Shown here: positions 18,090 to 31,651 of the stretch, in pieces | How positions within the stretch are numbered: the stretch's first letter is position 1 | Layout of the letters: each line of letters opens with the position of its first letter | Source: Candidatus Hermodarchaeota archaeon | GTDB lineage: Archaea > Asgardarchaeota > Hermodarchaeia > Hermodarchaeales > Hermodarchaeaceae | Direction of reading: 5' to 3' | Assembly (NCBI GenBank): GCA_016839805.1 | Contig: JAEOTO010000032.1 | Span: 1 to 64,000, forward strand | DNA: 64,000 bases | Made by a program: the position numbers and the translations under genes | The notes under the pieces: model-generated | Seen by the model: only the letters and a program-made list of their open reading frames with translations | Databases searched by the model: none | What the model was told of the DNA's origin: nothing

Positions 18090-21000
18090 TTATGTTCGGT
18101 CTGCTAACTTCAAACGAGGCCATATGCCGAGAGACATAAGTTCTTGAATAACTAGTTTGAAAGCATATGACATCTCAACTTTGCTGATAGTCGTGGTTTT
18201 AGGTGTGCAAACCCGACACCGATACCGATCTCGGTTTCGGTCGTATTCAGCAAGCATTCCACATTCTTCACAGACCATTGCAGTGTATTTATCAGATTCC
18301 TCCAAGAGTCGTTCGCGTAAAAGTAGGGCGGCTCCATGGCCAATTAGGCAGTCGCGTTCCATTTCTCCAAAACGCAACCCACCCTCCCGAGCACGACCTT
18401 CAGTGGGTTGGCGTGTTAATATTTGAACGGGACCACGAGCTCGTGCATGCATCTTATCCGCGACGAGATGATGAAGTTTTTGATAGTAAACGACCCCAAC
18501 AAAGAGATCGACATTGTATTTGTGCCCGGTGACACCGTTATACATGGTTTCACGGCCACTGAATTTGAAGCCCAAGTCATGAAGCTCCTTGAACATATCC
18601 TCAAGTTTTTTACCCGAGAAAGGCGTGGCATCAAGTGAGTGCCCTTGCATACACCCAATTTTTCCACCCATTGATTCAAGGATTTGACCAAGAGTCATCC
18701 GACTGGGAAAGGCATGAGCGTTAACAACCAGATCGGGAACAATGCCAGTTTCAGTGAATGGCATATCTTCTTGTGGCGCTAGTAAGCCAATAACACCTTT
18801 TTGACCATGGCGGCTAGCGAATTTATCACCTAATTCCGGGATCCGTTCATCACGGACTTTCACCTTCACGAGCCGGTTGCCATCAATAGTCTCTGAGATT
18901 AGGACCTTGTCAATCGTTCCTTCTTCACCATGGCGTAAACTAACCGATGTCTCTCGACGTTTTGGTCCGGGAACTTCTAACTCAGTATATTCTTCTAAGA
19001 ACCTTGGTGGACTGGTTCGTCCAATAAGAATCTCATCTCCACCAACCTGAAATTCTGGTTCAATAATACCGTCTTCGCTTAGTAATCGATAGGCTTCAGA
19101 CGCTCGATATCCACGCACTTCACGGCTTGGGATTTCAAATTTATCTTCTTGACCACCTGGATATTTGCGTTCTTCTGCGTCATAGCACCTGAAGAAGGAG
19201 GATCGAGCAATACCTCTTTCAATAGAGGCTTTGTTAATCACCAAAGCGTCTTCGATGTTATAACCTTGGAAGGAATGAATAGCCACAATGAAGTTCTGAC
19301 CGGCAGGTCGTCTATGGTATCCAATTACCTCCATTGGTCGTGTTGTAACGATTGGACTTTGCACGTAGTGAAGGAGATGGCTTCGTGTATCCACCCGAAG
19401 ACCGAAGTTAGCTGAATAAAGACCCAGGGCTTGTTTTGCCATTCCCGCCTCATAGGTGTTACGAGGTGATTGATTGTGTTCGGCAAATGGTACAAGTGCT
19501 GCTGTCATCCCGAGAATTGTTTCAGGCACGATCTCCAGATGGGTGTGTTCAGGCGTCAATTCCGGAGGTGTTAAAGCAATCAGTGTGTTTTCTTCTTCCT
19601 CTGCATCAAGGTATTCAATAATTCCAGCTTTAACGAGGTCTTCCCAAGTGAGTTCCCGGTTACGAACACGTTCCACATGTTGTTTTTCAAGAAGCGGAGT
19701 TCCACCTTTTACGATTATAAGCGGACGGCGAACCCGTCCGGCATCGGAATTGATCTGAACCTCGTTAGTATCGGGGTAAAAAGCAATATTGACCTGATCA
19801 CTAAGTTCACTTCTCTGACGGCGATCGCGAAGCCGTGTTACTAATAATTCAGGTTGTGAATGGGTCCCCACGAATCGTCCGTTCAAATAAACATAGGCAC
19901 CTTTAGGTTGTTCTTTTGATTTGGTATCTATCGTTTGGATTTTTAGAGAAAGTAAGGCCTCTTCAACTTCCGATTCATTGGAGCCAACTGATATGAAGGA
20001 CATTAATGCGAGATTTTTCACGAGCCCACAATTGGGACCTTCAGGTGTTTCATTTGGACAGATTTTTCCCCAATGTGTGGGATGAAGGTCACGTGCTTCG
20101 AAGTGAGGTTGGCTCCGACTTAAGGGAGAAACGACGCGGCGTAAATGGCTCAGTGAGGACATGTAATTTACACGATCAAGAAGTTGGCTGACACCAGCTT
20201 TTCCACCAACCCAATTACCAGTGGCTAGTGCATGTCGTAGTCGTTCGGTGATGACATCGGCGCGAACAGCTGTTTTGATATTGGGTGTTCGTCCTCGTGT
20301 CGCAGTTCGTTCTAGCTGATATTTGATATCGCGGCAGAGATTGAGAAAAGCTACACGGAACAGACTTGTAAGTAAGTCTCCTGCCAACTTCAATCGCTTG
20401 TTGGCATAATGGTCCTTATCATCTTGCTCACGTTGATCAACACTGAGTTCCAAGAGTCGTTGAGTCATTTGACCTACGTAATGTGCTTTAGCCATTGCAG
20501 ATCCTGAATCAGTCCCGATATGAGGAAGGAGATATCTATTGAGAACTTGCTCAGCGCGTCGTAAACGATAATCTTTCGTTTGTCCAACAGCAACACGTTT
20601 TCCAATGTAATCTAGAGCATTTTCACGGGTTGCCTTGGAATCTTTGGGAACTACTAGGGACTCAGCTGCATGAAAACTTGGTATTAATTCCTGGGCTAAT
20701 GATGGATCATCTGTAATTGTAGCAACGACTTCTCGGTCAGTTACCAATCCTAGGGCTCGCATTAACACTACAAGAGGAATTTTACCAGGGACTGATGGGA
20801 AGGACACCCGGAAAGTATGATCCGTACGCCGTTCCATCGTTACAGGGGCACGGAATCCTCGGGCGGTAGAAAAAACTTTGGCCATATGAGTGCATGCACT
20901 ACTGCTAGTAGCTTCTTCGATAAGAATTCGATTTGGTGCTAGATCTTCCTGAGTAACCAGGACCCGTTCTGATCCATTGATGATAAAATATCCACCGGGA

Positions 21001-21458
21001 TCATTCGGGTCTTCTCCAGCCTCAACCAGGTCTTCAGGAGTCATTGCCGAAAGCCGACAAAACGCTGACTTAAGCATTATCGGGAGACGCCCAACATAAA
21101 CACTAGTAGTTTCCTCATCATATTCCATACCCGTTTTCTTGTCTCGATATACCGGTGTCATTTCAAGATAAATGGGAGATGAATATGTGAGGTTACGAAT
21201 TCTAGCCTCAGCGGGGGCGATATTACGAACGGAGCCATCGGCTTCACGGACCGAAGGATTCTGGATTTCCACACGCCCTAACCGCACAAAATAATCCTTA
21301 TCAGGAATGTCAGGCTCGATTTTACCAACATCGCTAATAATTTGTTGAAGACGCCGTTCAACAAAGTCATTATATGAATCCAGATGCTGGCGTACCAATC
21401 CCTTCGAAATAAAAAAGGATTTCATAACTGCCCAACGGTCTTCAGATGTAAGTACCAT
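18090..21458 (-). CDS. rpoB: RNA polymerase subunit B (unsplit Rpo2)
   Basis: ETPEGPNCGLVKN, GDKFASRHGQKG, GGLRFGEMERD; single 1122-aa chain. Confidence 0.98.
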   Translation of the reverse strand: MVLTSEDRWAVMKSFFISKGLVRQHLDSYNDFVERRLQQIISDVGKIEPDIPDKDYFVRLGRVEIQNPSVREADGSVRNIAPAEARIRNLTYSSPIYLEMTPVYRDKKTGMEYDEETTSVYVGRLPIMLKSAFCRLSAMTPEDLVEAGEDPNDPGGYFIINGSERVLVTQEDLAPNRILIEEATSSSACTHMAKVFSTARGFRAPVTMERRTDHTFRVSFPSVPGKIPLVVLMRALGLVTDREVVATITDDPSLAQELIPSFHAAESLVVPKDSKATRENALDYIGKRVAVGQTKDYRLRRAEQVLNRYLLPHIGTDSGSAMAKAHYVGQMTQRLLELSVDQREQDDKDHYANKRLKLAGDLLTSLFRVAFLNLCRDIKYQLERTATRGRTPNIKTAVRADVITERLRHALATGNWVGGKAGVSQLLDRVNYMSSLSHLRRVVSPLSRSQPHFEARDLHPTHWGKICPNETPEGPNCGLVKNLALMSFISVGSNESEVEEALLSLKIQTIDTKSKEQPKGAYVYLNGRFVGTHSQPELLVTRLRDRRQRSELSDQVNIAFYPDTNEVQINSDAGRVRRPLIIVKGGTPLLEKQHVERVRNRELTWEDLVKAGIIEYLDAEEEENTLIALTPPELTPEHTHLEIVPETILGMTAALVPFAEHNQSPRNTYEAGMAKQALGLYSANFGLRVDTRSHLLHYVQSPIVTTRPMEVIGYHRRPAGQNFIVAIHSFQGYNIEDALVINKASIERGIARSSFFRCYDAEERKYPGGQEDKFEIPSREVRGYRASEAYRLLSEDGIIEPEFQVGGDEILIGRTSPPRFLEEYTELEVPGPKRRETSVSLRHGEEGTIDKVLISETIDGNRLVKVKVRDERIPELGDKFASRHGQKGVIGLLAPQEDMPFTETGIVPDLVVNAHAFPSRMTLGQILESMGGKIGCMQGHSLDATPFSGKKLEDMFKELHDLGFKFSGRETMYNGVTGHKYNVDLFVGVVYYQKLHHLVADKMHARARGPVQILTRQPTEGRAREGGLRFGEMERDCLIGHGAALLLRERLLEESDKYTAMVCEECGMLAEYDRNRDRYRCRVCTPKTTTISKVEMSYAFKLVIQELMSLGIWPRLKLADRT

Positions 21459-21725
21459 ATTCCACCCTCAGAGACGATTCTGCTCAATATGCGACGGGAA
21501 TCTCACCCTCACCAGACGGCATCATACTTCCATGAGCCCATATAGCTAAAGCCCGCATGAGAAACTTAGAATCCTTTGCCCTATGAACCAGAGCGGGTAC
21601 ATCGTCTCATTAGCAATTTTTGCCCAGGCAGAAACATGCGGCGCCAAACCAGCCGTCGCTCCAGCGAAGCATACCGTCTGCGGAGTTAAGGCGACAATGT
21701 ACAAACGCCTTTTTAAGCTTTCGAT
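21459..21725 (-). promoter_or_regulatory. Putative BRE/TATA promoter and ~230-nt structured 5' leader of rpoB
   Basis: CGAAAGCTTAAAAA on the minus strand near 21710-21723; several long-range complementary blocks in 21471-21680. Confidence 0.5.
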
Positions 21726-21737
21726 TAAACATTGCAG

Positions 21738-21860
21738 GTTTCGATTAAACACTTCGTGAGCTACCCCGTCTTTGCAGATGAGGTTTCCTGCTTCATCGTT
21801 TCAGCCAGTGCTGACAGCTCCACAGGCTCTTCCCGAGGCTCCCTCGGTGCCATGACGGAC
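21738..21860 (-). ncRNA. Predicted omegaRNA/right end of TnpB-1; scaffold ends ...GGGGTAGCTCAC (21756), guide GAAGTGTTTAATCGAAAC follows
   Basis: Hairpin plus TCAC terminus overlapping the stop codon is typical of IS200/605 right ends; 5' boundary approximate. Confidence 0.65.
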
Positions 21861-22975
21861 CGAAGTCCTATCATCTTGATATTTTTTGCAGCATTGATGT
21901 CCCGATCATGATGAGTTCTACATTCTGTGCAAACCCATTCACGATCTGCAATTTGAAGCGCGGTATTCTTGAATCCGCAAGTTGAACATAGCTTGCTAGT
22001 TGACTCAAAGCGTCCAATCTCGATTAAAGTCACGCCATGCATTTCGGCTTTATCTTTCAACATCCGAAGAAAGCTAGACCATGCCGCGTCTGAGATTTGT
22101 CTTGCCAGCTTTCTGTTACTCATCATACCTCGAACATTCAAACTCTCTACTATAATCGCTTGGTTCTCGCGAATTAGTCGTGTAGATAGTTTTTGTTGAA
22201 AGTCCATTCGCTGATTGGTAATGCGTTCGTAGCATTGAGCTAGCCTGTGTCTTGCCTTCTCTCGGTTTTTCGAGCCTTTCTTCTTTTTGCTTAACCTTTG
22301 GTGTAGACAGCGTAACCTTTTGAGCGCATGCTGAATCGGTCTGGGATTTCCGATTTTCTCACCAGTGGATAGTGTAGCATAGGAAGTGAGTCCGACATCA
22401 ATTCCAACTGAACCCTGTGTGGTGACCAAGCTCTTCTCAGGAGGTTGTTTCCCATCCTCTACAACGATACAAATGAAGAACTTACCCGTGTTAGTAGAAA
22501 CGATTATACATTCTTTCGGATTGCCCGTGAACCTTCGATGGAAGACGGCCTTTACTTTCCCAATTTTAGGAAGACGCACTCTTCGAGCTTCAAAGTCAAC
22601 CTTAAAATTAGGGACAACAAAGGACTGACGATGAGCTTTTCTCCTCTTGAACTTAGGATATCCAGGGTTCTCACCAAGCTTTACTCGCCGAAAGAAGTGT
22701 TGATATGCTAGAACTACCCGCTTAACAGCATGTATAAGAGACTGCGAGTAGGCTTCCTTCAGAAAAAGATTGGCTTGTTTCAGACTTGTGAGTAAATAGT
22801 TTAATTCGTACCAGCTGAGACATTTACCATCAGCCTCATAGGCATGTTTCTTCCTTTCGAGAGCCCAATTATAGACGAACCGACAAGCATCGATATTTTT
22901 TCGAATTTGTTCACGCTGAACCTTATTCGGGTATAGGCGATACCGGTAGGTCCGCAGCATATAATTACGTTCCAC
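21761..22975 (-). CDS. tnpB: TnpB, IS200/IS605 type, with no tnpA nearby
   Basis: YRYRLYP N-terminus, GYPKFK, RuvC GIDVG / VESL / DRDINAA, CxxC..CxxC zinc finger. Confidence 0.95.
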   Translation of the reverse strand: MERNYMLRTYRYRLYPNKVQREQIRKNIDACRFVYNWALERKKHAYEADGKCLSWYELNYLLTSLKQANLFLKEAYSQSLIHAVKRVVLAYQHFFRRVKLGENPGYPKFKRRKAHRQSFVVPNFKVDFEARRVRLPKIGKVKAVFHRRFTGNPKECIIVSTNTGKFFICIVVEDGKQPPEKSLVTTQGSVGIDVGLTSYATLSTGEKIGNPRPIQHALKRLRCLHQRLSKKKKGSKNREKARHRLAQCYERITNQRMDFQQKLSTRLIRENQAIIVESLNVRGMMSNRKLARQISDAAWSSFLRMLKDKAEMHGVTLIEIGRFESTSKLCSTCGFKNTALQIADREWVCTECRTHHDRDINAAKNIKMIGLRSVMAPREPREEPVELSALAETMKQETSSAKTG

Positions 22976-23027
22976 AGGTAGCTATTTGAAGTCCTTGATT
23001 CGTACCTGCTTCACGCAAAAGGAAAAG

Positions 23028-23165
23028 TGGCGCCCGCTCCGGGATTCGAACCCGAGTCCTAGGAGATCCGCAAATCTATGAATCATCATAGACCGTTGAC
23101 AGTCCCAGATGATAAACCTGGCTTCGTGTTCGCGCCAAAATGGCAACGAAATACACTAAGCGGGC
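23028..23165 (-). tRNA. tRNA-Asp(GTC) with two introns (~14/15 and 37/38)
   Basis: GCCCGCT/AGCGGGC acceptor stem, CT-GTC-A loop; BHB-like junctions restore the cloverleaf. Confidence 0.88.
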
Positions 23166-23239
23166 CCTTGTGTTTTTGTGAGAATTACATTGCGTGATTT
23201 AAAGGTTCCTCTGGTCTGAGTTACTTGTTCGGAAGGATA

Positions 23240-23371
23240 TGGTCCCGGCGCCCGGATTTGAACCAGGAACCATCTGGTATCTGCGTTGGTTGACACCGGG
23301 TCATTGCCATATGGCTCAGGGTGCGGTGGTTACCTACAGCCAGACGCTCTACCAGGTTGAGCTACGCCGGG
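23240..23371 (-). tRNA. tRNA-Tyr(GTA) with canonical intron
   Basis: C1-G72 CCCGGCG/CGCCGGG acceptor stem, TCTGG-CT-GTA-G...A-CCAGA anticodon arm. Confidence 0.9.
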
Positions 23372-23414
23372 ATGGTGCGAAAAGTAGCTTTGGTTGAGTA
23401 GCTTATAAGAGTTT

Positions 23415-23903
23415 TCAAAGGATTTCATGGAATATCTGGGTTAGGGTGTCAATGATTGATTGTGCAGCAACTTTTACAGGTTTAGAGAAAGGTTGGGCGA
23501 ATTCGTCCGTGAAGGGCTGGATGCCAAGAATTAGGATTGTGGTTGTGATACTATTTTCGATGTATTCAATGAAGAAGGTGAGGGGAAGTTGGTGTGATGA
23601 GAAGGCAATGCCTCCGATTGAGGTTTTATCTATTAAACGAATTGTTCCGGGTTCGGCTTGCATGAGAGCAGCGTCAATGAGTAGAATGAAAGAAGGATTC
23701 GAGTCGATGAGGTGGGTAATGAAGTTTTCAGGCACAGTACTGGCGTTAATTAATTCTATATTTGGTGGATTAAGAGCTTGAAGGTGGTCTATAATGTAGG
23801 GTCCGATACCATCATCAGCTTTCATGTCGTTGCCAATTCCGACGATTACACTTTTGTTTGATTTCTTGAAGGTGGTTTTAAGTTGTTGCTGCCAGGATTG
23901 CAT
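23415..23903 (-). CDS. Hydrogenase maturation protease (HycI-like)
   Basis: VGIGNDMKADDGIG, VPEN, IDAA, SSHQLPL; start trimmed to ATG 23903 to avoid overlap with endA. Confidence 0.88.
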   Translation of the reverse strand: MQSWQQQLKTTFKKSNKSVIVGIGNDMKADDGIGPYIIDHLQALNPPNIELINASTVPENFITHLIDSNPSFILLIDAALMQAEPGTIRLIDKTSIGGIAFSSHQLPLTFFIEYIENSITTTILILGIQPFTDEFAQPFSKPVKVAAQSIIDTLTQIFHEIL

Positions 23904-23973
23904 TGTATTTTTGGAGACGGGAAGAATGTTATATAGCTTCGCCTCTTTTCGGTTCAGTAAGTGGTGAAGGATT

Positions 23974-24570
23974 GTGACAGATGAGAAATCCTTGGAGATA
24001 AAAGCTCCTGAAGATGAACGTCCACAACTCCCGGATGAATCTATCCCTGCACAATTTTCACGCGGTCGAGTCACTGTGAAGGGAGAGCAGGCGCCCCTAC
24101 TGTATGAGGCTGGATATTATGGTACCTTGAAGAATGGAAATAAATTGATATTAGAGCCAGAAGAAGTTTTATTGTTAGTTCGACGCCAACGCATTCAAGT
24201 ATCGGATTCAAAGGGAACTAATTTTGAATTTGCTGATTTACTGGAACAACTTGGTGAACGGCATCCAGGTTTGTGGACTAGGTTTCTTGTATATAGTGAT
24301 CTACGAAGCCGTGGATATGTCGTCCGGACAGGATATGGTAAGGGGTTATTATTTCGGGTATATCCACGTGGAGCTAAACTCAATGAAGCGACAGCAAAAT
24401 ATTTCGTGTGTGTCATTTCAGAGGGGGTGCCATTAAAAGTTACAGAAATTGAGACTTTCAGTAAGCAGGCAAAGCGCAATCGAAAGAAGCTAATGCTTGC
24501 TGTCCTAGACCGACAAGGTGAAACGACCTACTACCTTGTAGCTCCTGCAGATATTGTTGCAGAGAAATGA
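23974..24570 (+). CDS. endA: tRNA splicing endonuclease subunit (possibly the structural subunit)
   Basis: FLVYSDLRSRGYVVRTG..FRVY, RKKLMLAVLD..TTYY; the catalytic His position reads TAKY. Confidence 0.85.
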   Translation: MTDEKSLEIKAPEDERPQLPDESIPAQFSRGRVTVKGEQAPLLYEAGYYGTLKNGNKLILEPEEVLLLVRRQRIQVSDSKGTNFEFADLLEQLGERHPGLWTRFLVYSDLRSRGYVVRTGYGKGLLFRVYPRGAKLNEATAKYFVCVISEGVPLKVTEIETFSKQAKRNRKKLMLAVLDRQGETTYYLVAPADIVAEK

Positions 24571-24584
24571 TATAATTGGAGGAG

Positions 24585-24706
24585 TGGCGGGCCCGCCGGG
24601 ATTTTCGGCGTCTCTGAAGAAAGACGCATTCGAACCCGGGATTACCAGCTTAGGAGGCTGGCGCCTTCTTCGGGGATATGCTCCAATCCGACTTGGCCAC
24701 GGGCCC
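24585..24706 (-). tRNA. tRNA-Arg(CCT) with D-loop and T-loop (59/60) introns
   Basis: GGGCCCG/CGGGCCC acceptor stem, CCAGC-CT-CCT-AA-GCTGG; BHB helices TCGG/CCGA and TTCG/CGAA. Confidence 0.88.
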
Positions 24707-24753
24707 TTGACCTTCAATTGCGCAAAGAAGTTAGTACTTATGCTCTTTTTGCT

Positions 24754-25440
24754 TTACCGTTGCAGTAGCGTCGCACCTTTGCCCTTACCGACGTAGACGA
24801 CATCTGCATAAGTGGGGAAGAGACCGTTTTCGAGAACCCCTGGAATGACGTTCAGACGTTCTTCTAGCCTAGCAGGGTTTGGAATTTGTGGAAATGTTAC
24901 ATCTAGTATGAAGTTTCCATTATCAGTGATTATTGGTCCAGCCTTTCGATCAGCTTGACGAAGCCTCGGTGAGCCGCCTAGTTTTTGGATTCGATCCATA
25001 GTAAGAGCAAGAGCGTCTGGCAGTATTTCTACTGGAACTGGCATCCTGGTGCCCAACTTATCAACGAGTTTGGCACTATCCACGATAATAATTAGTTGTT
25101 GGGCTGCTGCGGCTAATATCTTCTCCCGCAGGAGTGCAGCTCCACCCCCCTTGATAAGTGCAAGTTTCGTGTCAACTTCATCTGCACCATCCACTGCACA
25201 CACAAGACTTGTAACACGCCCAAGCGGCAGAGTAGCGATTCCCGCATCATGAAGTCGCAGCTCTGTGGCATAAGAGCTAGGAACGGCCGTAATTGAAATA
25301 TTTTCAGCCGCGACCTTCTCGACTAGTAATTCAATAAAAAGTTCAACTGTTGATCCAGTTCCAACGCCTAGACACATTCCATCTGAAACGTGGTTGATTG
25401 CCGCTTCTGCAGCCAGACGTTTTTCCTCAGCAGATGTCAT
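24754..25440 (-). CDS. rpiA: Ribose-5-phosphate isomerase A
   Basis: GVGTGST, DGADEVD, IKGGGAALLREKI, TDNGNFILD. Confidence 0.96.
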   Translation of the reverse strand: MTSAEEKRLAAEAAINHVSDGMCLGVGTGSTVELFIELLVEKVAAENISITAVPSSYATELRLHDAGIATLPLGRVTSLVCAVDGADEVDTKLALIKGGGAALLREKILAAAAQQLIIIVDSAKLVDKLGTRMPVPVEILPDALALTMDRIQKLGGSPRLRQADRKAGPIITDNGNFILDVTFPQIPNPARLEERLNVIPGVLENGLFPTYADVVYVGKGKGATLLQR

Positions 25441-25548
25441 TTTGTATCCATCCTTCTACCAGATACACACGTATATCATTTCAAACACTTGACCCTTAAA
25501 AATCCCATATAGAAATCAAGTTACTTAAAGAAAATAAATAGTGTAAAG

Positions 25549-25765
25549 ATGGAGCCTCGGGCGAGAAAGTTCGTGTCCATGAAGTACACGATTCGTTGGA
25601 ATAGTGCCGATATCGAGAAAAGGGAAATACACTAGCGTTCTTGCTAAGCAAGAAGGCTGAAAAATATCGGTCTTATCCGTTCCATATCAGGGCCCTTTCC
25701 GTTGCCCTCACCATCCAGCCATTTATGGTCATGGAGGGCGTGTTTGCGTTACCGACAAACATAGC
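25549..25765 (-). ncRNA. Predicted guide-RNA scaffold plus guide for the Cas12f-like nuclease
   Basis: Successive hairpins after the stop codon (TGTTTG/CAAACA, GCCCTC/GAGGGC, CCGATAT/ATATCGG, TTCTTGC/GCAAGAA, TCGTGT/ACACGA), then GAAC and a tRNA-like 20-mer. Confidence 0.6.
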
Positions 25766-25768
25766 GAG

Positions 25769-27121
25769 TTATTCCATCTTTACTATTTTCTTAATTTGAC
25801 GTTTACCACGACGTGCTAGTTCAATTGCAGCGTTTACATCTCTTGGGAGTTTTATGCCACAGGCAGGACACCGAAAAACAGAATGACTAAATCTCGTTAA
25901 CAGACAAAGACATCCCCGAGGGCAGATGCAACTAGAATAAGCTGCATTTACCCAAATGACCGGAATACTATGTAATGCCGCGTTTCTCTGGATGGTTTTC
26001 CCCATTTCTCCTCTAGCCCATTTACTAAGTTGATCCCGTAATTTCGGCTTTGCCCAAGGTGTTCTTCTTCGAGTAGGTTGATAAGTGCTAAGATTTTCAA
26101 GAGAAATAATTGGGTGATTAAACTGGGCTGCGTAGCGTACTATCACGTTAGCAGTTGTGTTAATCCAATGTTTAATTATACGTTGGGTTTTTTTGTCGAG
26201 GGCTTGGATCTCTTCAGACTTATTTAGTCTTGAAGCTTTTTTTCGTTTCCCCCAAAGTTGTCCTAGCTGATGTTTAAGCCGTTTCCCGGATACTACCTTT
26301 GCAGGAAGTATTCGTTCGTCATTGGAAATTGCTACTGCAGCAGCAAGAGAATTAATTCCCAAATCAACACCTATCACTGTTGGATTGGTTAAATTTTCTA
26401 TTTTGGGAACATTGACTTTAGTTGTCACTGGAACAGCCAAGTAGACTTTCTCTTCACGGTTAATGAGCCTTGGAGCTCCTATCGAATATCCTTCTTTTCC
26501 ATTGAGTGCTTGACGGATAAGTTGTTCAGGTTTGCCACCAATAACAGCTCGTGTTTTAACAACCACCCTGTCAATAGATACATGGATATCTTGAGTGTCT
26601 GAGTCAATGAAAATCCGTAGGTTGGTCTGAGGCCATTGACCACGTTGACTGCCTGGCCAACCTTTGAGGTTATCTGAATATGAAACTATTCGGTTTAGCC
26701 CCGGCAAAGGTTCAGGTAAATCAATACATTTCTTCGAAGTCCATCTAGTCCAACTCTTTAGTATTTCGTAAGTTAGAACGCGTTCCTTTTTCCAATAAGA
26801 TAACCATTGATAGGCTTCTCGTCCTGCCCGATCCAACATACGTGCTGGAAGTTGAGCAAAAGTTGGATGTTTCCGTAATTCGTGATAGATTTCCTTTTCT
26901 GTACAGTTTCCCTCCTGTAAAAGGTTAATAAATCGTCGGATTGCTCGGGTGTATAATCGTCGTAATCGATAAACTACATTTGTAGTAACTTCAGGTAAAC
27001 TAAGCCAAACAGTTCGTGTAACGGATTCAATCGTTTGGATATGATTTTGAACTCCTTTAAGCGGTCGTTCAGAGGATTCAACTACTTCAGATAATGCCGC
27101 GATCTCTATTTGACCCATCAA
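25769..27121 (-). CDS. Divergent TnpB/Cas12f-like RNA-guided nuclease (450 aa)
   Basis: RuvC VIGVDLG / ISLENL / PRDVNAA, VNAAYSS..C and CPACG zinc finger; atypical N-terminal half. Confidence 0.8.
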   Translation of the reverse strand: MMGQIEIAALSEVVESSERPLKGVQNHIQTIESVTRTVWLSLPEVTTNVVYRLRRLYTRAIRRFINLLQEGNCTEKEIYHELRKHPTFAQLPARMLDRAGREAYQWLSYWKKERVLTYEILKSWTRWTSKKCIDLPEPLPGLNRIVSYSDNLKGWPGSQRGQWPQTNLRIFIDSDTQDIHVSIDRVVVKTRAVIGGKPEQLIRQALNGKEGYSIGAPRLINREEKVYLAVPVTTKVNVPKIENLTNPTVIGVDLGINSLAAAVAISNDERILPAKVVSGKRLKHQLGQLWGKRKKASRLNKSEEIQALDKKTQRIIKHWINTTANVIVRYAAQFNHPIISLENLSTYQPTRRRTPWAKPKLRDQLSKWARGEMGKTIQRNAALHSIPVIWVNAAYSSCICPRGCLCLLTRFSHSVFRCPACGIKLPRDVNAAIELARRGKRQIKKIVKME

Positions 27122-27192
27122 TCCAACCTAATACCAAATAACATGAACACGCGTTTATTTCCATTAGAGACTTGGTTATAAATGAAAAATAA

Positions 27193-27269
27193 TGGAGCCT
27201 CAGCCGGGATTCGAACCCGGGATCCCCACCTTACCAAGGTGGTGCGCTACCATGCTATGCCACTGAGGC
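27193..27269 (-). tRNA. tRNA-Thr(GGT), no intron
   Basis: GCCTCAG/CTGAGGC-T-CCA, CCACC-TT-GGT-AA-GGTGG. Confidence 0.93.
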
Positions 27270-27282
27270 TTGACAAATGATA

Positions 27283-27464
27283 TGGTGCCGAGGGCGGGCG
27301 TTCCGCGAACTCCAACGGATTTCGTTTCGAACCCGCGACCTCCAGATGTCTCCGGCGCCAGTCATCATAATATTCTGACCCTGGGGCAAAGCCCTATGAG
27401 TATCGCCCTAATATTCCAAGAATGGTTACTAGTCTGGCGCTCAACCAGGCTAAGCTACCTCGGC
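27283..27464 (-). tRNA. Elongator-type tRNA-Met(CAT) with three introns (30/31 at 27402-27433, 37/38, 59/60)
   Basis: GCCGAGG/CCTCGGC acceptor stem; removing three BHB-bounded inserts gives CCAGA-CT-CAT-AA-TCTGG and GCGGG-TTCGAAG-CCCGC. Confidence 0.85.
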
Positions 27465-27547
27465 AGGAGTTATCCTCAATTGGTTCCTTTTAAGCATTAT
27501 TCTACTTTCTCAACGTATTATCTAAACCCATTTCTAATGCAACAGAG

Positions 27548-27720
27548 AGACGCCCTATGAGTCTGGCCGTTGTCCGAAACCTATCCACTAAGACCTGCAA
27601 ACTTAGTAGTGTTCGGTTCCTGCATCATCGACGGGCACTGACCCGTAATAAGCCTGCAACCTCCCGTCTCAAGACAGGCGTTTTGTGTCTCCGACCAACT
27701 GGCGGCGACTAATTCTAAAT
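27548..27720 (-). ncRNA. Predicted omegaRNA of the IS607-type TnpB; scaffold ends ...GGTTTCGGACAACGG (27567), guide CCAGACTCATAGGGC follows
   Basis: IS607-like right end ending in AACGG just after the stop codon; 5' boundary approximate. Confidence 0.7.
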
Positions 27721-28798
27721 TAAGACTTGCATTCAGGTCACGGTCAATCACTAAACCACAATGTTCGCACGAAAAAAGGCGAGTAGATAAAGCCAGTTTA
27801 GATTTAATGTTACCACATTGAGAACATCGCTTTGAGGACGGAAAAAACCGAGGTGCAAAGATTAACTTGGATCCGTACCATTTCGTTTTATATTCGAGTT
27901 GACGACGAATCTCGGAAAAGCTCACATCTGAAAGAGCTTGGCTCAGAAATTTATTTTTAACCATTCCTTGAACATTTAGATCTTCAACAACGATTTGGCT
28001 GTGGTTCTTTGCCAAGTATGTCGTTAATTTGTGAAGACAGTCTATCCGAATGTTGCTTATACGCCAATGTAACCGACTCAGCCTGATAACGGCTTTTTGA
28101 CGATTCCTTGACCCTTTTTGTTTACGTGAAATCTGGCGAGATATACGCCTTAATTTTCGCATTTTTCTTGGAAGTGGACGTGGATTCTCAAAAACGGTTC
28201 CACAAGATAGTGTTGCTAAAGACTTGATTCCTAAATCAACACCAACTTTCGGACCTTTGATTAGTAATGGTTCTGGTCTCTCTTGTTCAACGGTGAAGCT
28301 GATAAACCAGCGATCTGCCTTTCTAGAAATTGTGGCAGAAAGTATTCGCCCCGAGACATTCGATTTTTCCTTCAGCCTTAATTGACCTAGCCGAGGAAGC
28401 TGAACTGATTTTTCAAATAATCTAATTGTACCCAGTAGTTTGAAACTATCATGACGTCCCTTCTTTTTGAACTTGGGAAATCCTACCTTCTTACCCTTCT
28501 TTCTCCCACGCCAGAAATTGGCAAAGGCTTTATGAAGGTCGCGAAGTGCCTCTTGAGGGGCACATTTGGACACTTCATACATCCAAGGATAATGGTATCT
28601 TTTTCTTCGATTCAGCTCACGGTGCTGTCGAAAATAATTCGTAAAACGATCCTTTCCTTTCTCTGAGTTAAAGCGTTTGATTCGTTCTTCCAATCCCCAG
28701 TTGTAAACAAATCGAGCGCAACCTGCGTGCTTCACAAGTAGTGTTCGCTGTCGGTTGTTTGGATCCAATTCGTACCGATATCCACGAAGAACTAGCAC
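27581..28798 (-). CDS. tnpB: TnpB, IS607 type, with no serine recombinase tnpA nearby
   Basis: YRYELDPN, SKCAPQEAL, GFPKFKKKG, RuvC GVDLG / VEDL / DRDLNAS, AASWSETQNAC tail. Confidence 0.93.
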   Translation of the reverse strand: MLVLRGYRYELDPNNRQRTLLVKHAGCARFVYNWGLEERIKRFNSEKGKDRFTNYFRQHRELNRRKRYHYPWMYEVSKCAPQEALRDLHKAFANFWRGRKKGKKVGFPKFKKKGRHDSFKLLGTIRLFEKSVQLPRLGQLRLKEKSNVSGRILSATISRKADRWFISFTVEQERPEPLLIKGPKVGVDLGIKSLATLSCGTVFENPRPLPRKMRKLRRISRQISRKQKGSRNRQKAVIRLSRLHWRISNIRIDCLHKLTTYLAKNHSQIVVEDLNVQGMVKNKFLSQALSDVSFSEIRRQLEYKTKWYGSKLIFAPRFFPSSKRCSQCGNIKSKLALSTRLFSCEHCGLVIDRDLNASLNLELVAASWSETQNACLETGGCRLITGQCPSMMQEPNTTKFAGLSG

Positions 28799-29029
28799 GT
28801 CTTTACTATCCCCAATATCTGTGGAACGCGTTTACCATCTGCACGCTAATTGCAAGTGTATAGTTTTTTAGAAAAAGTTGGTATATTATTCACAACAGAC
28901 CCGGTTGGAAAAGTGATGTCCCTAAGGGAAAAGCAATTACGCGAAGCATTTTTTAGCAACGAAATAACGTTGTCACGCCACTAAAGCGCGGGGGCGTGTC
29001 CATGGGTCAGCGCCCTCAATGACTAAGTG

Positions 29030-29140
29030 GCGGGGGTTTCTACAGTATCGTAGACCCCATAGCCAAGCTTGGTCAAAGGCGCAGGACTTAAGATCCTGTC
29101 TCGTAGGAGTTCCCGGGTTCGAAGCCCGGCCCCCGCACCA
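29030..29140 (+). tRNA. tRNA-Leu(TAA) with a 23-nt intron at position 8/9 (29038-29060)
   Basis: GCGGGGG/CCCCCGC acceptor stem, CAGGA-CT-TAA-GA-TCCTG, long variable arm; BHB GGGG/CCCC with GTT and ATA bulges. Confidence 0.88.
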
Positions 29141-29189
29141 ATTCGTCCTCCGAAGAATTAATCTACCGTGTTTGTATAACTGAAAATGA

Positions 29190-29264
29190 GCCTCCGTAGC
29201 ATAGTGGTGGTGCATTGGCCTTGTAAGCCAACGGTCCCGGGTTCAAATCCCGGCGGAGGCTCCA
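29190..29264 (+). tRNA. tRNA-Thr(TGT), no intron
   Basis: GCCTCCG/CGGAGGC-T-CCA, TTGGC-CT-TGT-AA-GCCAA. Confidence 0.93.
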
Positions 29265-29265
29265 T

Positions 29266-30045
29266 TTGCACCTAATACGGGGTTATAAACGGAACTCAGA
29301 AGGAGGGAATACAATGAAGCAACTTTGGGTGCTTAGTACCAACAAGCCGTATCAGACCATGATTACACTTGGAGTTGTGCTTGTTATACTTGCTTTAATT
29401 AATGGCCTTCTTAGATTGGTTCTTAGTTGGTTTCTTGGTTGGATAATTCCCCCATTTTTTGAGTTGATTTATTATTGGATAAGCGTGTTTTGGATTGTGT
29501 TGGGCGTATATTTTCTGTTCTTTACCGGATTTTTATATCACGAATCACGGAGAATCCACCGTGATCCCTTTCCTGAAGAGAGTATCTGCTCAAGTCAATC
29601 TGAACGGCTCGCATATGATTGGTGCGCGATTTGCGGACGCCTTGCTTGCCCAGACGAGTTGATACGAATCCAACAATCCTTAACTTCCTCTTATGGTATG
29701 TTTAGCTTTGATGGAGTAGCCTGTCACGATTGTGCACAGCGTCGTGTGAAAAGGTATGCAATTTTATCACCCGCCCTATTTGCCATTTTCTTCCCGTTGG
29801 CGCTGATTCCTCTAGTGAGTCTATTGCAAATGATGCCACCGAGTTTTAGCATCATCGTTTGGACCGTCTTAGTAGTTATTTTAAGTATTATTGCTATCTT
29901 CGGTGTTTGGAATTGGCGACGCCTTTTCCGTAAAGTGATTACCCCTTTATCTCAACAACCTGATCTGATGATTTCCATTAAAGAACGACTGGCAGAAAAG
30001 GGCATGGTGGGCAATAAGGCTGTATTTCGTAAGATTCCCAAATAA
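29266..30045 (+). CDS. Hypothetical 4-TM membrane protein with a Cys-rich (possibly Zn-binding) loop; start likely ATG 29314
   Basis: Hydrophobic segments flank C..WCAICGRLAC...CHDC. Confidence 0.65.
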   Translation: MHLIRGYKRNSEGGNTMKQLWVLSTNKPYQTMITLGVVLVILALINGLLRLVLSWFLGWIIPPFFELIYYWISVFWIVLGVYFLFFTGFLYHESRRIHRDPFPEESICSSQSERLAYDWCAICGRLACPDELIRIQQSLTSSYGMFSFDGVACHDCAQRRVKRYAILSPALFAIFFPLALIPLVSLLQMMPPSFSIIVWTVLVVILSIIAIFGVWNWRRLFRKVITPLSQQPDLMISIKERLAEKGMVGNKAVFRKIPK

Positions 30046-30116
30046 TGAGCCTTCTCTCTCATCTTACTGCATTAGATAAGATTTATCAAGCACCCGCCAT
30101 TTCCTATACGCGCATC

Positions 30117-30253
30117 GGGCCGGTAGTCTAGTTATCCGGTTACAATATGTGCTGGACTAGAGCGGTATGATGCGAGAAGATAAAACGGGTTCTGTTTTTC
30201 TCGCAAGGTTTGGGACCTCGTGGTCCCGAGTTCAAATCTCGGCCGGCCCACCA
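30117..30253 (+). tRNA. tRNA-Pro(TGG) with D-loop and 30/31 introns
   Basis: GGGCCGG/CCGGCCC acceptor stem; spliced arm CGAGG-TT-TGG-GA-CCTCG; BHB helices CTAG/CTAG and TGCG/CGCA. Confidence 0.87.
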
Positions 30254-30308
30254 CTTTTTCAACGCAGGAGAGTTCGTAACCTTTTTATAGCAGAGATTGG
30301 TGATGCTG

Positions 30309-30430
30309 GGTGGCGCGGTCATAGAAGCTGGGTCACACCCGGTCTCGTCAGATCCCGGAAGTTAAGCCGGTTTCGTCGCTGTGAGTACTGATGTCCGAGA
30401 GGTGTCGGGAAAATGGTGAACTGCGCCACT
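30309..30430 (+). rRNA. rrf: 5S rRNA, unlinked from 16S/23S
   Basis: Terminal helix GTGGCGCGG/CTGCGCCAC, CACACCCGGTCTCGT, GAAGTTAAGCC, AGTACTG, GGGAAA; about 122 nt. Confidence 0.92.
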
Positions 30431-31651
30431 TCTTTTCCTTTTGAGTTTACCTCGAAGTTGTGTAACCCTAAGCAAAGGTTTTTATTTTACGCAGAACCCG
30501 TTCCGGCATCACCTCTAGGAACCGTGAAGCTGATGATGCAAGTTCCGGGCACAGAATTCAACTGGATTTTTAATTTGATCTTTATAGTCATGTTTATGTT
30601 CATCTATTTGTACGGCACCCGCCTACAGTCCTATATTTGGACAAGGCAAGCTGAAGCAGGGTTAGCTCAGTTAGAAGCTTTGGCTAGACAGGGAAGACAA
30701 ATTGCTCATAATACACTTAAGGATCTCAAGGTGAAAGAGCAGGACATTAAACCTACAATAGATGACTTCATAGAATACTTCGTAATCGAACCAGTTGATA
30801 GAGATCCGGCAGGTGTTATTGGTCGAATTGATCATCTGCTCACTGTGCGCCAGGACGAATACGAAAAAGAAATGGAACAACTAGCCCCAACAGCAACCCT
30901 AGAGCAAAGAGCCAATGCCGAGAGTGTTCTGTCTGGTGTGATGGCTCTCAATTATGTCTACCGTGTCGTTCGACATTTCTTACTCTTAGGAAAGAAAACA
31001 AAGAGCATCTACTATACGATGCAATTACAAATGCAATTACCTATGATCATTCAAATGGCGAAAGCCTATTTTGAAGCCGTTCGGGCCTTTTCCGATGGCA
31101 AACCCATCGGTGACGGAATGGGACCTCTTGCTATTGCTCACTTTGCTAAAGAGATAAAAGCGGATAAGATCGAGGAGTTAGACCCACGGACAATAGCTGT
31201 TGCGGGTGAATTTGAAGGACGGGACTTGTGGTTTGTTCGTGCCAAGGGGCCAGCAAGCTTTGTGGGACATCCAGGTAAGGGCGTTGAAACCCTTGTTGAG
31301 CGGAATAAAGGTAAGATTGCAATGGTCATTACAGTCGACGCTGGGATGAAACTTGAAGGCGATGATAGCGGTCATGTTATTCGAGGTGTTGGTGCAGCGA
31401 TTGGTGATGCGGGTCCTGAAAAAATCGCAATTGAAGAATCGTGCCGGAAATACAATATTCCATTGTATGCCATCGTTATCAAAGAAGCTCTAGAAGATGC
31501 ACTTGCTCCAATGAAGAAAGTTCTTGTGGATTCTGTCCATTTGAAAGAGAAAGGTGTAATTGATAAAATCAAAAAACGTATACTGGATAGAACCAAGAAG
31601 GGCGAACGCATTATTGTGGCTGGAATTGGCAATACAATTGGCATTGGTTAA
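30413..31651 (+). CDS. DUF1512-like conserved archaeal protein (true start probably near 30532)
   Basis: IEPVDRDPAG, GKPIGDGMGP, TVDAGMKLEG, GVGAAIG, GIGNTIGIG. Confidence 0.75.
   Translation: MVNCATSFPFEFTSKLCNPKQRFLFYAEPVPASPLGTVKLMMQVPGTEFNWIFNLIFIVMFMFIYLYGTRLQSYIWTRQAEAGLAQLEALARQGRQIAHNTLKDLKVKEQDIKPTIDDFIEYFVIEPVDRDPAGVIGRIDHLLTVRQDEYEKEMEQLAPTATLEQRANAESVLSGVMALNYVYRVVRHFLLLGKKTKSIYYTMQLQMQLPMIIQMAKAYFEAVRAFSDGKPIGDGMGPLAIAHFAKEIKADKIEELDPRTIAVAGEFEGRDLWFVRAKGPASFVGHPGKGVETLVERNKGKIAMVITVDAGMKLEGDDSGHVIRGVGAAIGDAGPEKIAIEESCRKYNIPLYAIVIKEALEDALAPMKKVLVDSVHLKEKGVIDKIKKRILDRTKKGERIIVAGIGNTIGIG

Follow-up and report, generated by a model that had tools for sequence, protein, structure and literature searches.

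Three transposase-less TnpB cassettes among tRNA genes of a Hermodarchaeota archaeon: same-site spread, linked tRNA variants and a possible RNA-guided homing mode

The stretch of DNA considered here, 64,000 nucleotides (nt) long and hereafter called the window, represents contig C22 of the 2.3-Mb metagenome-assembled genome (MAG) of a Hermodarchaeota archaeon, which is 86.7% complete (assembly GCA_016839805.1, contig JAEOTO010000032.1). Its part between 18 and 32 kb is a block conserved across relatives, in which rpoB (18090-21458), two intron-rich transfer RNA (tRNA) genes, HycI, endA, rpiA, tRNA-Thr(GGU), tRNA-Met(CAU), tRNA-Leu(UAA), tRNA-Thr(UGU), orf259, the 5S ribosomal RNA (rRNA) gene and a DUF1512 gene follow each other in this order. 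Three open reading frames (ORFs) of the TnpB family, designated T1, T2 and T3, interrupt this block, all of them on the minus strand. Relatives were recruited via rpiA among Hermodarchaeota/Promethearchaeota MAGs and the comparison loci labelled L001, L002 and so on; L001 is the sister of the window (91% nucleotide identity), L011 belongs to a Hermodarchaeum yapensis MAG, and three further T3-bearing contigs as well as one T2-bearing contig were available as gene maps only. Comparison of these loci revealed that the cassettes formed around the three ORFs have spread horizontally, each to one and the same site in different hosts, and that variants of the neighboring tRNA genes were transferred together with them. 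Here, we describe the anatomy of these cassettes and of their guides, and address whether RNA-guided homing may account for such behavior.

Assignment of the three ORFs is based on profile and structure searches. T1 (404 amino acids; 21761-22975, minus strand, with the true start likely at the ATG at 22960) matches Pfam HTH_OrfB_IS605, OrfB_IS605 and TNB and scores 313 bits with NCBIfam guided_TnpB, T2 (450 amino acids; 25769-27121, minus strand) reaches 112 bits with the same model, and T3 (405 amino acids; 27581-28798, minus strand) 318 bits, along with a match to ISDra2 TnpB structures at E 4e-64. All of them exceed the curated cut-off of 100 bits (guided_TnpB, NCBIfam NF040570; Pfam PF01385 and PF07282), and in each the RuvC D-E-D triad and the zinc-ribbon cysteines are kept (motifs GxDxG, xxExLx, xRDxNA and CxxC pairs). 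By these scores T1 and T3 are classified as typical TnpBs and T2 as a divergent member of the family. Assignment of T2 to Cas12f or another type V effector was rejected, since its score with the Cas12f2 model (88 bits) is far below the cut-off of 450 and no CRISPR array was found within 21000-30500; its matches in PDB are equally weak for Cas12f and TnpB. T3 scores nearly equally with the IS200 and IS607 TnpB models, remaining under the cut-off of both (IS607_TnpB, 334 bits vs 350). Searches for Y1 TnpA (PF01797) and serine recombinase/Resolvase (PF00239) returned nothing in the assembled genome at its 86.7% completeness, while across 19 genomes of the order Y1 TnpA is present in one and Resolvase-family recombinase in none. 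Each element is single-copy with unique flanks, the nearest paralogs having 69%, 33% and 56% protein identity for T1, T2 and T3, respectively, and about nine diverged tnpB paralogs populate the genome. An autonomous IS200/IS605 or IS607 transposon was rejected given the lack of TnpA or recombinase, the single copy, the same site used in all lineages and a T3 guide missing from empty sites. The initial annotation, made from the window alone, thus proved right in describing three same-strand nucleases with intact catalytic motifs and no transposase, each adjacent to tRNA genes and single-copy as predicted for elements that do not transpose, and its division of them into distinct IS605-type, Cas12f-like and IS607-type nucleases finds no support, as T2 and T3 fall below the cut-offs of the Cas12f2 and IS200/IS607 models.

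Limits of the elements were set from the empty sites of relatives, and the end of each omega-RNA scaffold was placed where conservation in the family alignment stops. The first 16 nt past this end were taken as the guide, which gives 21755-21740 for T1, 25563-25548 for T2 and 27566-27551 for T3. For T1 and T3 the conservation of the scaffold drops sharply, and the match to the promoter or tRNA, respectively, begins at guide position 1. With scaffold ends fixed by family alignments, the proposal that the guides nearly copy their neighbors holds: T1 differs from the neighboring copy by two mismatches, T2 by three and T3 by one once an intron is removed, and the repeat finder independently returned the same guide/neighbor pairs (D10, D8 and D9, respectively). 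As a chance control, random 16-mers of this genome have a near-copy within 2.5 kb in 0.8% of cases if up to two mismatches are allowed and in 7.2% if up to three.

T1 spans approximately 21731-23015, as delimited by empty sites in L003 and L004. Its left-end region (22976-23015, minus strand, boundary approximate), set from the same empty sites and from alignment to the left end of paralog C41, begins about 12-22 nt past a multi-intron tRNA (23165-23028, minus strand) located directly upstream and read from its acceptor GCCCGCU/AGCGGGC with CCA. This tRNA is probably tRNA-Asp, judging by its CUGUCAA loop, and received no call by ARAGORN or Rfam. The omega-RNA scaffold (21756-21900, minus strand) overlaps the 3′ end of the ORF, is 86% identical in nucleotide sequence to C41 in this stretch only, and ends with ...GGGGTAGCTCAC at 21756, where similarity to C41 and L083/L090 ceases. 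The guide GAAGTGTTTAATCGAA (21740-21755, minus strand) equals the sequence just upstream of the B recognition element (BRE) and TATA box of the rpoB leader, with which it is directly continuous in L011 and L008. A near-copy is situated 20 nt further on in the native rpoB promoter copy (21709-21735, minus strand), where two seed mismatches at guide positions 2 and 4 distinguish it from the guide and where it is followed by BRE/TATA-like GCTTAAAAAGG, a motif conserved upstream of the rpoB leader in all relatives; this second copy arises from a 20-nt tandem duplication found in the window, L010 and T1-less L002. In L008 and L010 the T1 ORF was deleted between short CTTCAAAT repeats, and the left end together with the last 130-200 nt, encompassing scaffold and guide, was retained in well conserved form. 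By their sequence these segments, equivalent to 21756-21958 of the window and lying between HycI and rpoB, are orphan omega-RNA remnants. The rpoB leader itself (about 260 nt, 21460-21720, minus strand) maintains 84-98% identity across lineages with saturated synonymous sites in coding regions; it matched no Rfam family, and rpoH was not found ahead of rpoB.

T2 extends over approximately 25511-27182 (empty site in L001), and its left end starts about 10 nt past tRNA-Thr(GGU) (27269-27193). The omega-RNA scaffold in the 3′ untranslated region (25564-25790, minus strand) was recognized by 83-92% identity between the window and L011 over a region where host spacers do not align, by alignment of paralogs and by a fold z-score of -3.9; its end at about 25564 was set within about 2 nt by analogy to the terminal hairpin plus about 8 nt in L094/L097. 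The guide CGCCCGAGGCTCCATC (25563-25548) and the T-rich trailer behind it (together 25525-25563, minus strand) are a remnant of the 3′ end of an ancestral tRNA-Thr(GGU), the guide comprising the 3′ strands of T-stem and acceptor plus CCA. It matches the unoccupied alleles in L001 and L002 at 15 of 16 positions and recurs as the same guide in L011, L179 and L182. The resident tRNA-Thr(GGU) (27193-27269, minus strand) is a recoded allele with 6:67 = A:U and 49:65 = C:G, mismatching the guide at positions 3, 5 and 16; guide positions 3 and 5 correspond to tRNA positions 65 and 67, the partner bases of which, 49 and 6, are changed too, leaving the pairing preserved. The recoded 3′ strand occurs in all four T2-bearing lineages (4/4), and among T2-less lineages six of seven have the naive tRNA-Thr, L010 being the exception. 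Paralogs of T2 with 51-52% identity lie about 350 nt from the 5S rRNA gene in L094, L095 and L097 (genomes G007, G006 and G014), so that the TnpB clade of T2 occupies another neighborhood of a conserved RNA gene; no rRNA- or tRNA-derived guide was found in these 5S-adjoining paralogs.

T3 spans approximately 27508-28937 (empty site in L001) between the divergent tRNA-Leu(UAA) (29030-29140, plus strand) and tRNA-Met(CAU) (27464-27283). Its left-end region (28799-28937, minus strand) was defined by empty sites in L001 and other relatives and by comparison of L106 with L011. The scaffold (about 27567-27720, minus strand) ends with ...GTTTCGGACAACGG at 27567, an end kept in more than 50 family members with divergence immediately after it, and the guide CCAGACTCATAGGGCG (27551-27566, minus strand) starts exactly past this point. 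From guide position 1 it covers the anticodon stem and loop of tRNA-Met(CAU) and reaches 4 nt into its canonical intron, with a 15/16 match only in alleles devoid of a 32-nt intron (L001, L004, L002, L008 and L182). The resident tRNA-Met(CAU) (27283-27464, minus strand), 80 nt downstream of the guide, has three introns by alignment to these intron-less alleles, and intron 1 (27402-27433, 32 nt) splits the target after position 4 (tRNA 30/31). This intron folds as a canonical bulge-helix-bulge (BHB) motif (helix-bulge-helix-bulge-helix); its interpretation as a footprint of a TnpB end was rejected given its location 4-7 nt from the guide start and its normal BHB fold. Intron 1 is present in both T3-bearing sequences available as DNA. 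Since the T3 guide is missing from empty sites, it does not represent native flank. A spacer with promoter and a cassette-specific tRNA-Met leader (27465-27550, minus strand) travels with T3, the leader being common to the window and L106 and unlike that of L001, L011 and L008; the 57 nt after the guide have no similarity to tRNA-Met introns or any other sequence of the genome, and an exact-pattern scan of species-representative genomes for T3 scaffold plus guide gave no match. Another 15/16 match to the T3 guide, CCAGACTCATAAGGCG, was observed on contig C11 at about 3600 (minus strand) in a non-tRNA region beside a second CAGACTCATAA, with about 0.05 such matches expected by chance genome-wide.

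For the T3 family, 59 loci with an identifiable scaffold end were inspected for repeats between right and left flanks and for nearby tRNAs. Guides derived from tRNA were revealed for T3 itself (window and L106) and in one independent case, L066/L067, only. In the latter, the end of a complete tRNA-Leu(UAG) precedes tnpB by about 80 nt, and the guide begins precisely with the 3′ part of a tRNA-Leu(UAG), which runs through to CCA from the anticodon loop and whose anticodon stem is unlike that of the complete copy.

Occupancy of the same sites in diverged hosts is documented for every cassette. T1 has a same-site ortholog in L011 and decayed remnants in L008 and L010, that is, two occupied lineages and two with remnants; T2 occurs at the same site in at least four divergent lineages (window, L011/L106, L179-181 and L182-183), and T3 in at least three (window, metagenome contig L106 and the three contigs known from gene maps). 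In L106, T3 has the same site, guide and tRNA-Met leader as in the window. The flanks of this contig share 97-98% identity with L011, where T3 is missing and the spacer is of ancestral form. The backbone of L179-181 is near that of L002 (pS, the proportion of synonymous differences, is 0.13 between L179 and L002 for rpiA), L002 being without T2, and L182-183 represent a further backbone with T2 and without T3 or intron 1. Since in the three contig gene maps T3 is found without T1 or T2, the cassettes assort independently. Same-site orthologs differ at pS 0.24-0.49 vs 0.67-0.80, i.e., saturation, for the adjacent rpiA, endA, HycI and rpoB of the same genome pairs. TnpB paralogs do reach saturated pS (0.70-0.82), and dropping the last 60 codons, overlapped by omega-RNA, leaves the result unchanged. 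The ratio of non-synonymous to synonymous rates (dN/dS) in cassette ORFs is 0.12-0.19, and nucleotide identity steps at the right end of T2. Low pS, presence/absence polymorphism and the identity step do not fit vertical descent with losses, and therefore different hosts acquired the cassettes at identical sites.

The tRNA variants moved with them. On the L001-like backbone of the window two L011-like tracts are distinguished, 27478-27363, which holds the leader of tRNA-Met and its 5′ half with intron 1, and 27264-27202, which covers the entire tRNA-Thr; between the two the sequence is L001-like. Position of the left crossover varies: the whole tRNA-Thr was exchanged in the window, and in L179 the exchange comprises the T-arm onward, giving a hybrid tRNA-Thr where positions 1-48 follow the naive L002 allele and the cassette-linked T-arm and acceptor 3′ strand create a G6.U67 wobble. 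Such variation inside the tRNA fits recombinational repair and does not fit an integrase core or transposase. Chimeric assembly as a source of these mosaics was judged unlikely, as these structures were recovered repeatedly, in assemblies made independently from different samples (L011, L106, L179-181 and L182-183).

Taken together, we consider it somewhat better than an even bet (probability of about 0.55) that T1, T2 and T3 are independent TnpA-less TnpB/omega-RNA cassettes acting as RNA-guided free-standing homing elements. Judged by the features that characterize a free-standing homing endonuclease, gene-less alleles contain a target matched at 15-16 of 16 positions, the allele of the carrier is seed-mismatched or split by an intron, and presence or absence in close relatives is accompanied by co-conversion and horizontal spread. 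In the mechanism proposed, each guide would target the unoccupied allele of an adjoining conserved sequence, namely the region upstream of the rpoB promoter, the 3′ end of tRNA-Thr or the anticodon arm of tRNA-Met. DNA of an occupied genome would enter a naive relative, the nuclease would cut the naive allele, and repair off the incoming copy would install the cassette along with the neighboring tRNA variant, which may escape targeting by differing from the guide in the seed proximal to the transposon-associated motif (TAM). Escape would be provided by two compensated substitutions in tRNA-Thr and by a spliceable 32-nt BHB intron in tRNA-Met, while ultra-conserved flanks of tRNA and promoter would supply both the guide target and the homology arms across diverged lineages. 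We infer that the cassettes spread through cleavage by TnpB and that immunity stems from the differences in the seed. The range of alleles fits the classical cycle of invasion and decay, with naive (L001, L002 and L004), occupied, decayed (L008 and L010) and immune-empty states, the last exemplified by L011, L003 and L012 for intron 1 and by L010 for tRNA-Thr.

Several observations weigh against this homing scenario. The T1 guide consists of ordinary native flank, the duplicate of which is missing from L011 and L008. Three lineages (L003, L012 and L011) have intron 1 but no T3, thus T3 did not create the tRNA-Met intron, and as recoded tRNA-Thr is likewise found without T2 in L010, the tRNA variants are not strictly tied to cassettes. 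Not every transfer is explicable by cleavage, because L011 holds the already immune intron allele and conspecific L106 carries T3 nevertheless. Alignment of left ends (T1 with C41, close relatives of T3 and its multicopy subfamily) disclosed no consistent motif in the 5′ flanks that could serve as TAM. Homology on the right side of T2 is short, about 43 of 45 distinct sites in the T3 family are ordinary insertions with no tRNA link, and the sample consists of MAGs or metagenome contigs throughout. Since only T3 and L066/L067 have tRNA-derived guides, this design is not family-wide. Its broader claim of locus-specific, homing-like elements linked to altered tRNA genes retains same-site occupancy, low pS, polymorphism and co-transfer in its favor and loses the remodeling of tRNA-Met by T3, as well as T1, whose guide is ordinary flank. 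The outcome it named as contrary, multicopy elements at random sites with guides simply equal to flanking DNA, is not seen as to copy number and is mixed as to guides, that of T1 being native flank and that of T3 not.

The main rival explanation is passive allelic exchange, in which old IS200/IS605-type insertions at tRNA genes became passengers of homologous recombination starting in conserved tRNAs, cleavage by TnpB being irrelevant and the guide/neighbor relations being by-products of the original insertions and of later repair or duplication of tRNAs. We regard it as a serious possibility, though well short of an even chance. By construction the guides of T1 and T2 equal the right flank, the locus also swaps nuclease-free cassettes with tRNA repeats (a NUDIX cassette, an island with a major facilitator superfamily (MFS) transporter and a helix-turn-helix (HTH) regulator, and orf259 with pS 0.49), and the presence of T3 in L106 despite the immune allele in its conspecific is readily accommodated. 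Difficulties arise from the T3 guide, which is not native flank and yet matches the neighboring gene from guide position 1, from the purifying selection on the ORFs with their intact active sites and conserved scaffolds, and from conversion tracts that end within tens of nucleotides of the cassettes and are centered on the predicted targets.

Other possibilities appear considerably weaker. It is improbable that the units are remnants of plasmids or viruses that integrated at tRNA 3′ ends by recombination at attachment (att) sites, duplicated tRNA segments and decayed to TnpB genes: partial duplications of tRNA 3′ ends do flank T2, L066/L067 and non-TnpB insertions in relatives, and tRNA-Thr(GGU) of Caldiarchaeum provides a precedent (PMC3293823), but no integrase domain was found in the units or the neighboring islands, the tRNA remnants begin at the scaffold end (with no offset for T3 and L066/L067 and to within about 2 nt for T2), and the left crossover differs between the window and L179, unlike a fixed att core. 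Vertical inheritance with many independent losses and synonymous sites that evolve unusually slowly in these TnpB genes, already disfavored by the pS data, is very unlikely; loss does occur, as exemplified by decayed T1 in L008 and L010, but the paralogs saturate at the pS given above, deletion could not restore the clean naive sites, unrecoded tRNA-Thr and ancestral spacers of sister genomes, and nucleotide identity steps at the cassette ends. TldRs are nuclease-dead TnpB-like repressors with fixed guides. The cassettes resemble them in the fixed genomic position and in the hard-wired guide matching host sequence, and the idea of domesticated guide-RNA regulators that adjust transcription by binding to tRNA genes or the rpoB promoter could draw on the fixed sites, on guides directed to promoter-upstream sequence (T1) and tRNA genes, and on conserved scaffolds. 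We consider it the least probable of all, as all three proteins are full-length and keep both the D-E-D triad and the zinc finger, presence/absence polymorphism and ORF decay are marks of a selfish element rather than of a host gene, and the resident copies are mismatched, not matched, to the guides.

Synthetic cleave-and-rescue, or toxin-antidote, drives combine a nuclease acting on the wild-type essential allele with a tightly linked, recoded copy resistant to cleavage. The cassettes are similar in having a target-mismatched tRNA copy linked to the nuclease, and differ in that they are natural, that the rescue replaces the target in place and that they spread by conversion of the locus and not by killing non-carriers. 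As a tentative extension of the homing scenario, which we rate distinctly below even odds, RNA-guided nucleases might mold the structure of tRNA genes in Asgard archaea: TnpB cassettes with guides hard-wired to naive tRNA alleles might be natural cleave-and-rescue drives, and non-canonical tRNA introns and stem recodings might persist and spread by breaking the nuclease target, being kept either as the linked rescue allele of the drive or as free resistance alleles (L011, L003 and L012; L010).

Comparison with natural systems outlines what is shared and what is not. The published role of TnpB is to cut the vacant site, which is then restored by recombination (reviewed in PMC13565253). With TnpB/omega-RNA of IS200/IS605 elements (ISDra2, IS608-type) the cassettes share the family, the RuvC D-E-D, the zinc ribbon, a scaffold that overlaps the gene at its 3′ end and a guide immediately downstream, and depart from them in lacking TnpA (as do 18 of 19 genomes of the order), in being single-copy and confined to one site in every lineage, and in that the guides of T2 and T3 travel as fixed parts of the cassette, the target is an essential neighbor and the protected copy is linked. 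The closest protein analogue is SegB of phage T4, a free-standing homing endonuclease encoded in the phage tRNA cluster, which recognizes the conserved tRNA T-arm in gene-less relatives and is inherited preferentially with surrounding tRNA markers (PMC2330249). Common to both are a nuclease gene between tRNA genes and, for T2, a target at the T-stem/acceptor end; unlike SegB, the cassettes would rely on recognition by a putative guide RNA, reside in a cellular archaeon and derive presumed immunity from compensated stems or an intron. In Caldiarchaeum subterraneum a 1.9-kb insertion at a tRNA-Thr(GGU) gene brings a replacement tRNA part and an extra intron and leaves the old fragment behind, the locus being polymorphic within the population and the element multicopy, with an 813-bp ORF of unclear family (PMC3293823). 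That case is of the same flavor and older, and comes without the nuclease-guide rationale.

Apart from the cassettes, the block has further features worth describing. Because endA occupies the same position in every relative, it belongs to the synteny and lies outside the elements, and any role for it in them finds no support. EndA (23974-24570, plus strand) retains the catalytic Tyr and Lys, while Thr replaces the catalytic His of M. jannaschii (alignment to 1a79), and a second, better-scoring EndA paralog is encoded on contig C26 (C26:78271-78525). The sequences of the pair suggest that the enzyme is heteromeric, its two subunits dividing structural and catalytic roles between them, as would suit the many non-canonical introns. 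Between endA and rpiA, at about 24600-24700 (minus strand), a tRNA-like sequence with T-arm and CUCCUAA anticodon loop suggests tRNA-Arg(CCU); ARAGORN and the Rfam scan gave no match there, presumably owing to introns, and the repeat finder detected it (D3/D4). The tRNA-Leu(UAA), a conserved flank divergent to T3, has an intron after position 7, as judged from a partial Rfam match and sequence reading. Nuclease-free islands are also observed in relatives, in L011 (2808-7302 and 2060-2608) and past the tRNA of the T1 site in L012 and L002. One, 4.5 kb long with an MFS transporter, an HTH regulator and unknown genes, lies between two copies of tRNA-Leu(UAA), and another is a NUDIX cassette of about 700 nt bounded by a 12-nt repeat of a tRNA 3′ end. 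Among the islands flanked by duplicated tRNA segments, no Pfam match to an integrase was obtained. The slot of orf259 (29266-30045), an ORF common to the window and L011 only (pS 0.49), lies between a tRNA and tRNA-Thr(UGU), and in L182 (358-1020, minus strand) it is filled by an ORF of a LAGLIDADG-type homing endonuclease, as it likewise appears on the gene map of the contig carrying P0020; the slot is another variable cassette position, possibly of homing type.

Homing by TnpB is already known, and new here is the combination of four features: transposase-free horizontal spread at fixed sites, guides hard-wired to essential tRNA genes, linked immune alleles that would arise via compensated recoding or a BHB intron, and a possible tie to the load of tRNA introns in Asgard archaea. 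Persistence and movement of the abundant TnpBs lacking TnpA (IS1341-type) is a question of the field, to which this locus contributes alleles in naive, occupied, decayed and seemingly resistant states. Taken as a series, they point to a transposase-free form of homing in which conserved tRNA genes provide target and homology arms alike. The specific guide, intron and compensated stem changes are directly testable at the bench, and compact TnpBs for which natural guides, targets and escape alleles are defined represent useful material for studies of seed and TAM rules. An older idea holds that disruption of tRNA genes protects against mobile elements. A recent census of tRNA introns in Asgard archaea gives no route or agent explaining intron gain (bioRxiv 10.64898/2026.10.13.758758). 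If the homing scenario is true, it would provide a testable selective agent for part of this unexplained intron load.

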